A stretch of 64,000 bases of DNA from Candidatus Omnitrophota bacterium (GTDB taxonomy: Bacteria > Omnitrophota > Gorgyraeia > Gygaellales > Profunditerraquicolaceae), in NCBI GenBank assembly GCA_026387255.1, contig JAPLMA010000060.1:465-64464 (forward strand), read 5' to 3'. Position 1 is the stretch's first letter. The number at the start of each line of letters is the position of its first letter. Of the stretch, positions 12,653 through 63,383 are shown piece after piece. The translations under genes and the position numbers were made by a program. Under the pieces are notes generated by a model that saw nothing but the letters and a program-made list of their open reading frames with translations, was not told the origin of the DNA and did not search any database.

Positions 12653-13989
12653 ATGCAGCAAAATACCATCTCAAAAAAGTTCTGGTTGTGCCTATTATTC
12701 CTAGCGGTTATCCTACTTATAATAAATTCTGCCTTTTTTCATCAAAAAATTAATTTAATTGTTTTTTTTGTTTTTAGTTTAAGTGGCATTTTTATTTTTA
12801 CTTTCCTTTTAAAGTTTTATTCCGCTAAATTACTGCTTATCCAATCCGGCATTGAACATAATCAGGAAGGCATAAATATAATCGCTGTAGAGAACAAAAA
12901 AAATCAAGAGCAAGCTATGGCGGTTAAATTAAAAATTACCCGTTACGATAATTTAAAAAAATTAGTCGAAGATCTTAATCAGAGCTTAAAATTAGAGATC
13001 GTGATTCGCGTATTAAGTTCTACGGTTTATACGCTAATCTCAAATAGTGCCGGGGTGGCTCTTTTTTACTTGGTGGATAGTCAGCAGCAAAAACTAAATT
13101 TGGTCTATTCGATGAAAGACGATGCAGAGCTAGTTGTACTTTCTAAAGAAGGTGATCTTTTTGATCAGTGGGTCTTAAGGCATTCCAGCCAGTTAATTAT
13201 TGAGAATCTGAAAAATGATTTTCGGTTTGATGTTGACAGCATGGGTAAAGAAGAGATGCGTTCGGTTTTATCTTTGATTAGTTCGCCCCTGATTAGTAAT
13301 CATTCTTTGTTGGGGCTGTTGCGGCTAGAAAGTAAAAAGAACAATTTTTTTGACCAGGATGATTTACGTTTTCTTGCTTTGGTTAGTGATCTGGGTGCAG
13401 TAGCTATGGAAAACAGCCTGCTTTTTCAGAAAACTCAGGAATTAGCGATTCATGATGATCTGACTGCTTTATATACCCGCGGATATTTTATCGACAGGTT
13501 AAAAGATGAGGTTAGACGCGCTCAGCGCCTGGATCAAGATTTATCGTTAATGATGATCGACATTGATTTTTTTAAGCAATACAATGATAAATTTGGTCAT
13601 ATGATGGGAGATTTAGTGATTTTTTTAAGCAATACAATGATAAATTTGGTCATATGATGGGAGATTTAGTTTTAAAGAAGATGGGGATATTATTAAAAGA
13701 TGCGCTAAGCGAATTTAACCCTTTACTATGCCGTTTTGGAGGAGAAGAATTTTTAGTTATGCTGTCGGGGATAGATAAAAAGAAGGCTTTAATTATCGCC
13801 GAAAAACTGCGCCAGAGAATTCAAAGTGAAAAGATAATCTTGCGACGCCAGAATACATATATCACTGTTTCTATCGGTTTAGCTAGTTTACCCCTGGACA
13901 CAAAAGACCAAGATGAATTGGTCCACAAGGCAGATAAAGCGATGTATGCGGCTAAGGAAAAGGGCAGAAACCAGGTATGTTTAATATAA
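12653..13989 (+). pseudogene. TM-GAF-GGDEF diguanylate cyclase split by a 53-bp tandem duplication (two ORFs, 12653-13657 and 13654-13989)
   Basis: ORF1 ends ...DIDFFKQYNDKFGHMMGDLVIF* and ORF2 begins MMGDLVLKKMG...RFGGEEF. The 53-nt unit gatttttttaagcaatacaatgataaatttggtcatatgatgggagatttagt is present twice in tandem (13565-13617 and 13618-13670). Confidence 0.7.
13565..13670 (+). repeat. Perfect 53-bp tandem duplication inside the GGDEF domain coding sequence
   Basis: Seen directly in the sequence. 53 is not a multiple of 3, so the duplication frameshifts the gene. Confidence 0.9.
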
Positions 13990-14794
13990 TATTATTTTTA
14001 ATTATTCTTATCGCCTTTAGTTTATCTTACAAAGAGATTTTTTCTGTCCGGCTTAAGCGTCAAGAAGCCAGCTATACGCGTTTGGTAAATGAACTTAAGG
14101 TCTTGCATGAATTTAAAAAAAGTTTAGATTTGGAAAATAATCTCCTCAATAAAAGATTTGATGATACTCTGGCGCTCTATGAGTTAACTAAAGATATTTG
14201 TCAGAGTCTGGATGAGGAAAAAGTATTTACAATTTTTAATAAGAATTTAAAGAAGCATATTGACATTGGTGATTGTCAATACATTAGGGATAGCGCGAAT
14301 TTAGTTAAATATAAAAATTATCTGATTCTGCCTTTAATTCTAGAGGGAAATCAAATCGCTGGCTATCTGGCGGTAGATAGAATTTTAGAAACAGACAAAG
14401 AAAAGTTTGGAATTCTTACGCAACAGTTTTTAATTGGGTTAAGAAGGGCGCTTTTTTATCGCCAGGTTCAGGAATTAACGATTACCGATGCGCTGACTAG
14501 TGTTTATTGTCGAAGGTATTTTTTAGAGCGTTTTAGCGAAGAGCTCAAGCGTTCTAAAAAAAATAAATTATCTTTAGCCTTTTTGATGTTAGATATAGAT
14601 AATTTTAAACAATACAATGATCGTTACGGACATTTAGTTGGGGATGCCATATTGCGTCAGGTTTCTAAAATTATTTCGCTGGCGGTTAGGCAAATCGATT
14701 TTACCGGCCGTTACATTTAATTGATCTGGCAGATCAGGCTTTATATTTAGCCAAGGAAACCGGAAAAAATAAAGTTTGTTTCTCACCAACCTAA
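13977..14794 (+). pseudogene. Second GAF-GGDEF paralogue with an internal deletion/frameshift in the GGDEF domain
   Basis: Frame 0 ends ...DRYGHLVGDAILRQ...DFTGRYI*. The GGDEF C-terminus IDLADQALYLAKETGKNKVCF continues in another frame (14720-14794). About 60 residues, including the GGEEF active site, are missing between RY and LADQALY. Confidence 0.55.
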
Positions 14795-14821
14795 TTATTC
14801 GATTTTCGTTTTTTGTTTTAA

Positions 14822-15240
14822 CCATGTCTACGCGGGTCCTGTCGAGCCTTGTCTCTCGCCGGGGCGCTTGTTTTGCCCCGGCGAGGCAAAACTGCGCTCG
14901 GGTCGGCTGCGTCGCTCTGCCGAGACATATATTGGGGGCAACCGTGCCCGCTCCTTGCCTCCACGCCCGGCTCGAAGCCAAGGCTCGCCACCCGCTGAGA
15001 GCTTTACTAATTTATAAGCTTTCCGGCTTTTGCTGGAGGCACAATTAGAAGATTTTCGGCACTTCGACTATGCTCAGTGCCGATGGTGAGTGTAATCGAA
15101 CCATCGGCAACAGTGTGCAAGGAATTACGTCGAGCGCAGGCGGTGTCTCTTTAGCGTAAGGAGCCGCGCCGTAGCGAGACGTAAGCCGCCGCACACGGCG
15201 AAAATCTTCGTGCCGGAAGCAAGAGCCGGAAAGCTAATGT
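14822..15240. other. GC-rich non-coding block with dense mutually exclusive hairpins; candidate structured RNA or foreign remnant, family unassigned
   Basis: The block is visibly far more GC-rich than the flanking sequence. The ORFs in it are not protein-like. Hairpins include an 11-bp stem at 14855-65/14875-85 overlapping an alternative stem at 14864-77/14885-97. A pair of overlapping 8-bp stems lies at 15056-63/15076-83 and 15079-86/15101-08. A long-range helix joins 14842-51 to 14979-87. Confidence 0.3.
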
Positions 15241-15326
15241 TGGCATGTTATTAGCGAAAGATAGAACTCGCGTTAGGATAGTATTTATTCCTTGAAAACC
15301 GAAGTGTTTTAATATAAAATACCACA

Positions 15327-16253
15327 ATGGCTAAAAAATTTATTATGGCGATAGATTTAGGCGGTACTAATTTGAAATGTGCTTTACTTGACAATAGTTT
15401 AAAGATTAAAGCCAAAAGCTCTTTTAGCACAAAGAGTTTTGATAGTAAATATAAACTTATTCAGGGAATTACCGATTTACTAGAAAGTTTAATTTTAAAC
15501 CAAAGATTAAAGCGTTCTGCCATCCTGGGAGTGGGTATTGGTGTGCCTGGCCCGGTAGATACTTTAAAAGGGATTGTGCATTTCTTACCGAATATTCCGG
15601 GATGGAAAGAGGTAGGGCTAAAAAAAATTCTGGAACGGAAAATTAAGTTGCCGGTTTTTATTGATAATGATGCTAAGTTAATGACGCTAGCAGAGCATGA
15701 GTTGGGTGCGGCTAAGCACTATAAAAATGTATTATGTTTGACCTTGGGCACGGGAGTGGGCGGAGGTTTAATCATCAATGATTCACTCTACCGGGGTTCG
15801 GATAATGCCGCTGGGGAAGCTGGACACTTCCCGCTTAATGAAAATGGTCCTTTGTGTGGTTGCGGTGCTCATGGGTGCCTGGAGACATATGTTGGTAATC
15901 GTAAAATTATTAAAGCTGCGCGTGAATTGTTTGGCCCCAAAATTACCCTGGAAAGGGTAAGCGCATTAGCCAAAGAGAATAACCCTAAGGCAATAGATTT
16001 TTGGAGCCAGGTGGGTGGAAAGCTGGGTTTGGCTTTAAGTGGGATTGTAAATCTACTTAACCTTGATCTGATTGTAATTGGTGGAGGGGTATCTTACGCT
16101 GGCCCTGTATTATTTGAGAGTATCCGGCGAACAATTATATTGCGCGCAATGCGCCTGCAGGCAAAAAGAGTAAGAGTAGTTAAGGCTAAGTTAGGAATGG
16201 ATGCCGGAATTATTGGGGCAGGATATCTGGTTAGAGAAAGGTTAAAGGGATGA
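15327..16253 (+). CDS. ROK-family sugar kinase (glucokinase-like)
   Basis: N-terminal DLGGTN and the ROK zinc motif GxxCGCGxxGCLE. Confidence 0.75.
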
Positions 16254-34024: not shown

Positions 34025-34098
34025 GGGCCCATAGCTCAGTCGGTTAGAGCAGTTGACTCATAATCAATTGGTCCGGGGTTCGAGTCCCTGTGGGCCCA
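34025..34098 (+). tRNA. tRNA-Met (anticodon CAT); elongator or Ile2-lysidine type not resolved
   Basis: Folded manually. Acceptor GGGCCCA/TGGGCCC, D-stem GCTC/GAGC, anticodon stem GTTGA/TCAAT, loop CTCATAA, T-arm CGGGG-TTCGAGT-CCCTG, discriminator A. No CCA is encoded. Confidence 0.85.
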
Positions 34099-34227
34099 TT
34101 AATAAGCTTGTTGGAACACAATTAGAACCCCGGAACAAAAAGGGGTGTGGGGAAAAATTTTCCCCACGTATTCGGGGTAACAGTCCCGATGGAACATCGG
34201 GACGCCATAGGGGCAGAGCCCCTTTGG

Positions 34228-34261
34228 CAATTGGTCCGGGGTTCGAGTCCCTGTGGGCCCA
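34228..34261 (+). repeat. Perfect 34-nt copy of the tRNA-Met 3' portion (positions ~40-73)
   Basis: caattggtccggggttcgagtccctgtgggccca is identical to 34065-34098. Confidence 0.9.
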
Positions 34262-34272
34262 GAATATATTAA

Positions 34273-34346
34273 GGGCGATTGGCTCAGTTGGTTAGAGCGC
34301 CACATTCACATTGTGGATGTCAGAGGTTCGAGTCCTCTATCGCCCA
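34273..34346 (+). tRNA. tRNA-Val (anticodon CAC)
   Basis: Acceptor GGGCGAT/ATCGCCC, anticodon stem CCACA/TGTGG, loop TTCACAT, T-arm AGAGG-TTCGAGT-CCTCT, discriminator A. Confidence 0.85.
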
Positions 34347-34456
34347 TTATTAAAAAATAAATGGTTGATTCGAGTTTTGTCACAATTGATTTTAACGGGA
34401 ATAGAGCGTCCGCCACTAAAACGTTGGCGGACGGGCGCCAAAGTATTAGTGGCGCC

Positions 34457-34513
34457 CGCCACATTCACATTGTGGATGTCAGAGGTTCGAGTCCTCTATC
34501 GCCCATTATTAAA
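34457..34513 (+). repeat. Perfect 57-nt copy of the tRNA-Val 3' portion (anticodon arm to 3' end plus 8 nt of flank)
   Basis: Identical to 34298-34354. It creates the spurious ORF 34311-34583. Confidence 0.9.
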
Positions 34514-35654: not shown

Positions 35655-36041
35655 GCAGGCAGAAGGTGGCTGCCCGTTATTAATTTAATAACGGGAGGAA
35701 AGTCCGGGCTCCAGAGGATAACGTAATGGGTAACCCCCATCCCGTATATATAATGTATACGGAGGATTTCCGCCACAAATCGTGGTGGACTCGCCAATTT
35801 TTTTGGCGGGAGAGCCACAGAGACGAGTATCCGCGCAAGTGGAGAGGTGAAACGCGGCAATCTCTACGTGGAGCAAAGTAGAATAGGAGATGAGTGCTGA
35901 TCCAGCGCGTTTCCCGTTTTAGGCGGGAAGAAATCTCGGGTAAACTGCTAAAGTTACCGTGGTAACGCGGGAATTGAGAGGAATAGCCACTAATTGATGT
36001 GCAGGCAGGCATCAAGACAGAACCCGGCTTATTCTGCTTGC
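35655..36041 (+). ncRNA. rnpB: RNase P RNA (bacterial type A)
   Basis: P4 strands GGAAAGUCCGGGCUCC (35695-35710) and ACAGAACCCGGCUUA (36017-36031). P1 is formed by 35655-35664 pairing with 36032-36041. GC is elevated relative to the surroundings. Confidence 0.9.
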
Positions 36042-63261: not shown

Positions 63262-63383
63262 CTCTAATTTTGCGGGTCCTGTCTTGGGTATTTTCTAGCG
63301 CTGACGCGCTTTAAAAAACACCCAAGCCACCCGCAAAATCACTTGTTGTCTTTATAAAAAACTGGTAAAAGTTAAGAATAAAA

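Follow-up and report, generated by a model that had tools for sequence, protein, structure and literature searches.

The window analyzed here is a 64,000-nt stretch of contig JAPLMA010000060.1 from a Candidatus Omnitrophota bacterium. At 14822-15240 it contains a GC-rich intergenic island, located between two damaged GGDEF genes (12653-13989 and 13977-14794) and an open reading frame (ORF) for a ROK kinase with its ATG at 15327. Calculated over 150 nt, the GC content peaks at 0.69 in the island, the top peak of the 64 kb, against a window mean of 0.393 (standard deviation 0.055). The minimum free energy (MFE) of 14815-15245 is -208.6 kcal/mol on the plus strand (z = -7.9 versus dinucleotide shuffles) and -195.5 kcal/mol on the minus strand (z = -8.0). 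The plus strand is 13 kcal/mol more stable and none of the shuffles reached the folding energy of this segment. A preliminary description of this DNA had called the block a GC-rich, hairpin-dense, non-coding island. The GC peak, the z of about -8 and the finding that only spurious ORFs cross the island confirmed it. Every stem listed in that description exists as an inverted repeat: 14855-65/14875-85 is complementary at 11/11 positions, 14870-80/14882-92 at 10/11, 15056-63/15076-83 at 8/8 and 15078-87/15100-09 at 10/10, and a long-range inverted repeat is present at 14840-54/14976-90. The island is made of two separately closed domains, module A at 14828-14999 and module B at 15014-15238, with a spacer between them at 15000-15013.

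A scan of the island against Rfam 15 gave no match at the gathering threshold or even at E <= 10, in agreement with the earlier statement that the block could not be matched to tmRNA, 5S, SRP, RNase P, TPP or c-di-GMP riboswitch signatures. The models that found nothing in the island at E <= 10 include those of rRNA, tmRNA, RNase P, signal recognition particle (SRP) RNA, 6S, OLE, GOLLD, HEARO, ROOL and raiA, and ARAGORN detected no tmRNA in it. A and B copies in nine other loci (loci are given L numbers below) showed no Rfam match at E <= 5. Phage and plasmid collections searched by BLASTN contained no match to the island, and self-BLAST against the window found no second full copy. Scanning IMG/VR with the core motifs of A and B resulted in 21 exact-word matches, which is chance level, and 0 real copies by profile hidden Markov model.

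Module A is a full-length (~172 nt) copy of a dispersed structured repeat. The covariance model R1 matches 14828-14999 on the plus strand with 165.9 bits (E = 3e-42). On the minus strand A is silent, and the sole R1 match there (9.4 bits, E = 0.66) falls in module B. The outermost helix of the plus-strand pair map, P1, joins 14828-14837 to 14990-14999 and shows compensatory changes in 10/10 pairs in the model-based alignment. The terminal motif GCGGGTCC at 14832-14839, within the P1 region, is the true end of the shared unit. The ends of the element read (T)AGCGGGTCC ... CCACCCGCT(A), and a TAG precedes GCGGG in some A copies only. P2 (14841-14851 with 14979-14989) corresponds to the 9-bp long-range helix described earlier as enclosing a domain. 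It covaries, with double-sided changes in 9/10 pairs and 90% of cells pairing; for example, some copies have GAGCC/GGCTC and others TTGGC/GCCAA. P3 (14858-14863 with 14966-14971) is found as GCAGGG/CCCTGC, GCAGCA/TGCTGC and GCCGGG/CCCGGC, and 95% of its cells pair. The P4 hairpin (14870-14892; stem 14870-77/14885-92) has a variable stem with compensatory changes in 8/8 pairs and a conserved loop, CCCRGCGWGG. The P5/P5b/P6 domain (14905-14960) is defined by invariant columns and by the covariation of P6. P5 pairs poorly in the window's A copy. P6 (14918-21/14937-40) closes a hypervariable AT-rich loop at 14922-14936 and varies as TGCC/GGCA, TCGC/GCGA and TCAC/GTGA. Two near-invariant unpaired motifs are located in this domain, TCGCTCTGCC (14912-21) and GGGCAACCGTGCCCGCTC (14936-53). 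Across the A family three such motifs are seen: CGCTC (three times), TCGCTCTGCC and AACCGTGCCCGCTC.

The 49 pairs of the A structure were tested on an independent MAFFT alignment of 52 copies. In this alignment 84% of cells are paired, compared with 36-50% when the partners are slid by 1-3 columns, and double-sided (compensatory) changes are found in 38/49 pairs. The covariation score is 0.352 versus 0.136 in shuffles, and 0/500 shuffles reach the observed value. In the model-based alignment, built from 63 distinct copies, 88% of cells are paired and 44/49 pairs are compensatory. Homologues with compensatory base changes, a test proposed in the preliminary description, were thus found. It was concluded that A is under strong selection for its multi-helix fold together with its invariant unpaired motifs. 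A stem at 14855-65/14875-85, which had been put forward as one half of a mutually exclusive pair, did not hold up in the family: it pairs in 62% of cells versus 61.6% in shuffles, 137/500 shuffles reach that level, and it does not covary. This stem competes with P3 and P4 and is used in the MFE fold of the window copy, but not by the family. The A model has a clear polarity, with 120-184 bits in the forward direction versus at most 27 bits in reverse. G-U versus A-C counts on the element's own strand are 70:40 (the counts are not phylogenetically independent). Sorted by orientation to the flanking genes, the counts, which are small, are 18:10 in sense copies and 13:8 in antisense copies. The trend is the same in both, which suggests that the folding strand is set by the element and not by read-through transcription.

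Module B is a second structured, near-palindromic repeat on the plus strand (nhmmer E = 2e-47), about 180 nt long elsewhere, with an MFE z of -9.3. Its outer arm pairs 15014-15042 with 15210-15238 (inverted repeat I1, 29 nt, 83% complementary) and its second helix is at 15048-58/15199-209 (inverted repeat I4, 11/11). The arms covary between copies, and 12/29 pairs of the predicted B fold are compensatory in 11 sequences. The window's copy carries a lineage-specific 52-nt insertion in the B loop (15062-15113), which is absent from 10/10 other aligned B copies. The alternative hairpins proposed earlier at 15056-15108 fall inside this insertion, found only in the window's B copy. Further to the right, at 15263-15277 on the minus strand, the alignment shows a degenerate solo terminal arm, AGAACTCGCGTTAGG. 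Its counterpart in L004 and L020 is AGGACCCGCG-TAGG, the reverse complement of the A 5' end. The solo arm brackets the whole island as an inverted repeat; in L004, L005 and L020, as in the window, the insert ends on the right with such an inverted A arm.

The same spacer was compared among relatives. The ROK protein used as a query gave 80 loci, nearly all labeled Candidatus Omnitrophota. Among the closest of these, the content of the GGDEF-ROK spacer varies strongly. It is A+B in the window. In L007 the whole A+B block is inverted, L004 has A, the left end of B and a short hairpin element named C, and L005 has an inverted B plus C. L020 carries A(+) followed by A(-), L014 and L029 carry a fourth type, D, plus A(-), and L015 and L075 carry D alone. 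The ROK spacers of L002, L006 and L008 are free of inserts and 10-100 nt long. A, B, C and D thus occur in at least 7 combinations at this one site. The A copies of L004 (+) and L007 (-) are 91% identical, so the flip took place in situ; ~30-nt inverted repeats that flank the flipped segment in L007 were noted by eye. The suggestion of a new large structured non-coding RNA (ncRNA) survived in part: the island is conserved, non-coding and structured, but it is not a single RNA of ~420 nt, as A and B are independent modules that occur apart as well as together.

The ROK promoter, TTGAAA-17-TAAAAT at 15292-15320 on the plus strand, is outside the element and marks its right-hand limit. It is almost invariant across 10 related loci, both filled and empty. 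With only 6 nt between the end of its -10 hexamer and the ATG, a leaderless ROK mRNA is probable. Because the conserved promoter is downstream of the insert, a leader or riboswitch for ROK was ruled out. The island also lacks the fixed position and orientation between promoter and gene that are typical of riboswitches and cis-acting leaders, including c-di-GMP-I/II. As stated earlier, both upstream GGDEF genes are inactivated. The first is split by a frameshift near 13654 (its orthologues are intact), and the second is missing ~180 nt at 14714/14717 in comparison with every relative and has lost the GGEEF region. A link between the island and this deletion was considered and rejected: L004, L005 and L007 carry A or B and have intact GGDEF orthologues of 427 and 331 aa, so the damage is unrelated to the island.

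The preliminary description had considered, besides a new large structured ncRNA, a riboregulator with alternative conformers or a scar of foreign high-GC DNA. Two explanations of this kind were weighed: first, a single ~420-nt riboregulator that controls ROK or is linked to cyclic di-GMP, and second, foreign high-GC DNA or a piece of rRNA. High GC, dense stems and the location behind GGDEF genes would fit these explanations. Against the first, the block is inverted in L007, other relatives retain only A or B, L002, L006 and L008 lack it, the ROK promoter is located downstream of it, the alternative stems are non-covarying or lineage-specific, and none of the ~50 other copies adjoins a GGDEF or ROK gene. 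Against the second, many AT-rich Omnitrophota contigs carry the family as a native component, and the Rfam models of rRNA, tmRNA, RNase P, SRP and riboswitches do not match. We regard both as contradicted and extremely improbable. No role of the island in the regulation of ROK or of the dead GGDEF genes could be demonstrated.

Copies outside the ROK locus were collected by scanning metagenome contigs for the most conserved 18-mer of A, with nhmmer and the covariance model as a filter. We found ~60 A copies on ~50 Candidatus Omnitrophota contigs and more than 14 B copies. All are intergenic, often within 4-30 nt of the flanking genes, and no A copy on the metagenome contigs is near ROK, GGDEF or transaldolase genes. 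Between co-directional genes, 16 A copies are in sense and 11 in antisense orientation. Several contigs carry two or three copies, with up to 3 A per 6 kb (L084, L188), and a 20-kb housekeeping stretch, L222, has two A, two B and one C. The collinear A+B unit is found in at least seven unrelated contexts. In L143, downstream of LeuRS, it has the window's spacer, and the spacer 15000-15013 (plus strand) is conserved with the A+B composites of both L143 and L004. L176 and L177 share A together with the B arms at 97.7% identity, and their flanks are unrelated; the homology begins exactly at GCGGG and stops at the B outer arm, and the B interior of L176 is replaced. Likewise, L222 carries, at a distance of 8.7 kb, two B copies that share 95% identity; their ends are sharp and their flanks unrelated. 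No target-site duplication was found: the longest flank repeat has a mean of 1.52 nt versus 1.71 +/- 0.18 in permuted flanks, and none is present at the two L222 B copies or at L176/L177.

Miniature forms exist for both modules. In L176 and L114 B is reduced to its arms alone. In the window, a miniature relative of A of type C (~75 nt) is located at 63266-63340 on the plus strand, 5 nt past a stop codon. Its P1/P2 arms are those of A, around a short interior, TTCTAGCGCTGACGCGCT, and it folds as one hairpin with ~22-nt arms (z = -8.0). This copy was found via synteny with L189, whose orthologous site carries a full-length A; protein identity at the L189/window site is 62-67%. The fourth family, D, is ~220 nt long with inverted ends, AAATGAAYCTGSCG..., as in L114 8305-8531. 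It is also present in L187, L014, L015, L075, L001, L102, L120, L123, L183 and L109 and absent from the window. D is often directly beside A, and it occurs in ROK and FolD spacers. It was concluded that A, B and at least two further families (C and D) are resident repeats of Candidatus Omnitrophota genomes, found in either orientation in short spacers. We also observed a short module, GGGGACGGTTCTATTTTT, which repeats in direct and inverted form in spacers as terminator-like hairpins (L002 2895-2990; L127 560-600 and 790-830; L124; L084); the pair in L127 flanks an A copy.

The spacer between FolD and MTHFR is a second hot spot. L114 and L095 have D plus mini-B followed by MTHFR, while L222 has B, two orphan ORFs, A and an NYN gene before MTHFR. 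In L128 and L194, A is found directly after FolD, and the gene further downstream is off the contig or unidentified. At single intergenic sites, here the ROK and FolD spacers, distinct modules are thus combined in changing order and orientation, the hallmark of bacterial interspersed mosaic elements (BIME). The repeats accumulate at the same hot-spot spacers, each time combined differently, and frequently enclose small islets of orphan genes.

With about even confidence, we favor reading the island as a mosaic cluster of structured intergenic repeats that are non-autonomous, comparable to REP doublets forming hairpins (REPINs) or to miniature inverted-repeat transposable elements (MITEs), made of a full-length A and a B element with a degenerate inverted A arm at the right. 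The miniature forms that keep only the arms (63266-63340 and the mini-B of L176 and L114) support mobile repeats. Further support comes from the varying content of the ROK and FolD spacers, the dispersal over unrelated contexts, the near-identical copies with sharp, reproducible ends in unrelated flanks, the mixed orientation, the selected fold, the G-U excess on the element's own strand, and the lack of a conserved sigma-70 promoter, of a T-run and of a recurrent neighboring transposase. The elements would be copied or moved through a folded single-stranded intermediate, in which the paired arms and conserved loops may be recognized by an enzyme encoded elsewhere in the genome. A RAYT-type (REP-associated tyrosine transposase) HUH/Y1 enzyme or a structure-specific recombinase would be candidates, and the handling would resemble that of REP/REPIN elements (REP, repetitive extragenic palindrome) and integron attC sites.

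Several observations weigh against such mobile repeats. No mobilizing enzyme was found, although a single-copy gene would not be expected to turn up in as little as 1.9 Mb of fragments, and no autonomous element with A or B ends was seen among the loci examined. The contigs were picked via the A core motif, which biases copy density upward; in the unbiased sample (the 80 ROK loci plus the window) A is rare away from the ROK spacer. Identity among A paralogues of one contig is 55-79%, no higher than between contigs, and the copies do not form the cloud around a master sequence that typical REPIN/MITE bursts produce. The interior of A with its invariant loops is conserved, which simple end-recognition does not require. 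Some sites are occupied in deeply diverged contigs: three contigs have a copy downstream of yjbQ, L084 and L222 have one upstream of tgt, and the L189/window site is a further case. Such sites fit a host-level function as well as they fit persistence. Since same-contig copies are diverged and sites have stayed occupied across deep divergence, the families are old residents under continuing structural constraint. Recent copying has been only occasional.

A serious rival, which we nevertheless consider rather unlikely, is that A and B are genes of a new multicopy structured ncRNA family, trans-acting or excised from operon transcripts. The family would have spread by duplication and recombination, and its fold and loops might serve protein binding or catalysis. 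A has the covariation-backed secondary structure of an ncRNA gene: six covarying helices with near-invariant unpaired motifs, a strongly polar model and G-U in excess of A-C on the element strand. Old paralogues retain the structure, positions are kept across deep divergence, and the family is absent from Rfam 15. The G-U to A-C ratio of 1.75 is low for a dedicated RNA, however, and the copies lack expression signals of their own. In a search with the sigma-70-type -35/-10 consensus only, no promoter at a fixed distance was found; the best upstream scores were no better than on the antisense side, and none reached 10/12 in the sense direction. No T-run (terminator) is present at either side of A copies. 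The copies are wedged 4-30 nt from flanking genes in both orientations, close relatives differ in presence or absence at one locus, and miniature derivatives drop the whole conserved interior and yet persist at the same sites. Repeated, orientation-free elements without expression signals usually mark the ends of mobile elements and not dedicated RNA genes. The variable P6 loop, P4 stem and P5 arm showed no complementarity to the copies' own flanks beyond that to permuted flanks. As these variable regions do not match the flanks in excess, the logic of a guide or bridge RNA is not supported.

If only a stable stem matters, the elements might be cis-acting parts of operon mRNA, such as processing sites (e.g., for RNase III), stabilizers or insulators. 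They are located in intercistronic spacers of co-directional genes whose stop codons and ribosome-binding sites are intact, both strands fold about equally well, and the long P1-P2 stem would be a plausible target for a double-strand RNase. A mere stem needs neither invariant unpaired motifs nor polarity, and the antisense copies keep G-U on the non-transcribed strand (13:8), the opposite of what selection at the mRNA level would give. The elements are also dispensable at orthologous sites and have no T-run. We consider such a role in mRNA quite improbable.

Adjacent A pairs are arranged head-out (+,-) in 6/9 cases compared with 25% expected (binomial p about 0.01; the sample is small). Element pairs surround one to three orphan or accessory genes in L084 (691-2893), L137 (8755-9705), L164 (371-1379), L188 (233-1399), L181 (7205-9882) and L222 (41-2499 and 8747-10165). 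The genes inside the pairs are orphan or accessory (DpnI, DUF5677, pilin-like and Pfam-less genes) and those outside are housekeeping genes. L222 has an islet between FolD and MTHFR, and L114 lacks it. When 256 neighboring ORFs were clustered, no recurrent mobile-element gene, transposase or integrase was detected; the recurrent families are housekeeping (FolD, LeuRS, Tgt, YjbQ-like) plus pilin-like. No transposase was found between or beside any copy in the loci examined. A tblastn search with approximate IS608 TnpA and E. coli RAYT queries gave no match in 1.9 Mb, a result that is uninformative for a single-copy gene.

In integrons, the attC core sites are RYYYAAC ... GTTRRRY, and attC clusters without an integrase are known as CALINs (clusters of attC sites lacking integron-integrases). 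The Omnitrophota elements could be folded single-strand recombination sites of this kind that delimit small gene cassettes, with the solo copies being empty or decayed. Both types have a conserved single-strand fold with variable stem sequences and variable terminal structure, flank promoterless accessory genes and leave no target duplication, and the head-out pairs and their orphan contents would agree with a cassette boundary. In contrast to attC, the termini of A are GCGGGTCC..., with no AAC/GTT core sites at the ends, the loops are conserved in sequence, and the orientation is mixed and not uniform relative to an intI platform. No integron integrase gene was seen near the elements. Most copies are solo and bracket no gene, this island included, and few pairs were sampled. 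The cassette-boundary role is a more speculative variant and on balance improbable. We hold it possible, though doubtful, that A, B and D are an undescribed class of large multi-helix elements with invariant loops that insert and exchange small orphan-gene islets between Omnitrophota housekeeping genes via an enzyme acting on folded single strands, or else that A and B are new multicopy functional RNAs. With the same reserve, such an islet system might represent a new type of cassette mobilization or recombination that is neither an integron nor REPIN-RAYT nor a DDE transposon.

In lifestyle, the mosaic of non-autonomous repeats that we favor comes closest to REP/REPIN-BIME systems and to hairpin-forming MITEs. 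REPs are about 25 nt and REPINs about 100 nt long, and they are mobilized by RAYT (Y1 HUH) transposases (Bertels and Rainey, 2011, PMC3116915; PMC3337134). The Omnitrophota elements are like REP/REPIN-BIME in being extragenic, multicopy, non-autonomous, non-coding and GC-rich and in occurring in both orientations (PMC3116915; PMC3337134). As in REPINs, no transposase neighbors the copies, and long-term vertical persistence is accompanied by occasional copying. The REPIN arrangement of two inverted arms in a single hairpin is approached by the miniature C form, but its arms are not REP-like palindromes. As in BIMEs, different modules cluster as mosaic arrays in the same spacers. They differ in being 3-8 times larger (72-225 nt) and in having a branched six-helix interior with invariant loops, the full-length forms carrying a 125-nt interior. 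In addition, the arms are not themselves palindromes, and copies within a genome are highly diverged and do not stay near a master sequence; only occasional pairs are 95-98% identical.

The elements also share features with MITEs: a small size (70-230 nt), no coding capacity, terminal inverted repeats (P1-P2 in A; 29 nt, 83% in B), an intergenic location with presumed co-transcription with neighbors in either orientation, and full-length and internally deleted forms with common ends. Bacterial MITEs that fold into hairpins include the Correia elements of Neisseria and enterobacterial ERIC. Unlike MITEs, the Omnitrophota elements make no target-site duplication, have no cognate insertion sequence with the same ends among the loci examined and are GC-rich in an AT-rich genome. 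Their interior is kept by compensatory substitutions, whereas neutral MITE interiors are not. Searches of GC-rich intergenic regions in AT-rich genomes yield candidate multicopy structured RNA motifs. The island was found in the same manner, as a GC-rich structured intergenic block with strong covariation and no match to a known family, but the elements differ from such motifs in being repeated, polymorphic and orientation-free without expression signals of their own.

Two hypothetical proteins in a public collection, P0001 and P0002 (70-78 aa), are translations across A (L223 1715-1951 and L222 10001-10213, respectively). They are gene-calling artefacts, because the GC-rich repeat is poor in stop codons. 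A census with the spurious A ORF as the protein query gave only these 2 matches and led to the 20-kb locus L222.

Other repeats were noted elsewhere in the window. The tRNA-Met gene (34025-34098) is followed by a ~130-nt GC-rich, hairpin-rich insert and then by an exact 34-nt duplicate of the tRNA 3' end (34228-34261). The tRNA-Val gene (34273-34346) is followed by a ~110-nt insert and a duplicate of the tRNA 3' half (34457-34505), which was called a third tRNA by ARAGORN and not by Rfam. These inserts, spanning 34099-34261 and 34347-34505 with the duplicates, have the appearance of very small elements that inserted at the 3' ends of the tRNA genes and produced att-type duplications. The segment 53540-53593, in the spacer that follows a minus-strand gene of 1085 aa, carries two direct repeats of CAGCTAAACACATCG and, after them, GTAGGGGTCAGGCATGCCTGACCCCTAC, a perfect 28-nt palindrome. 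The 3' end of the RNase P RNA (CAAGACAGAACCCGG, 36013-36027) resembles the reverse complement of the A terminal arm with 2 mismatches in 15, but this is at chance level and was discarded.

The feature is real and previously uncatalogued, and it is an entry point to an undescribed repeat system of the Omnitrophota, a large uncultured phylum of mostly ultra-small cells. These repeats are unusual among bacterial repeats in that the whole fold, and not the ends alone, is kept by compensatory evolution, and the fold is therefore a good handle for finding the enzyme that recognizes them. Screens for GC-rich intergenic regions will mistake the repeats for novel ncRNAs or riboswitches, and gene callers will mistake them for small proteins, two of which are already public. 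The repeats can also break or mis-join assemblies of metagenome-assembled genomes. If the reading as mobile structured repeats is true, Omnitrophota carry a rich, undescribed set of such intergenic elements, which would shape operon spacers, create hot spots of inversion and insertion and mark the entry of orphan genes into conserved neighborhoods.

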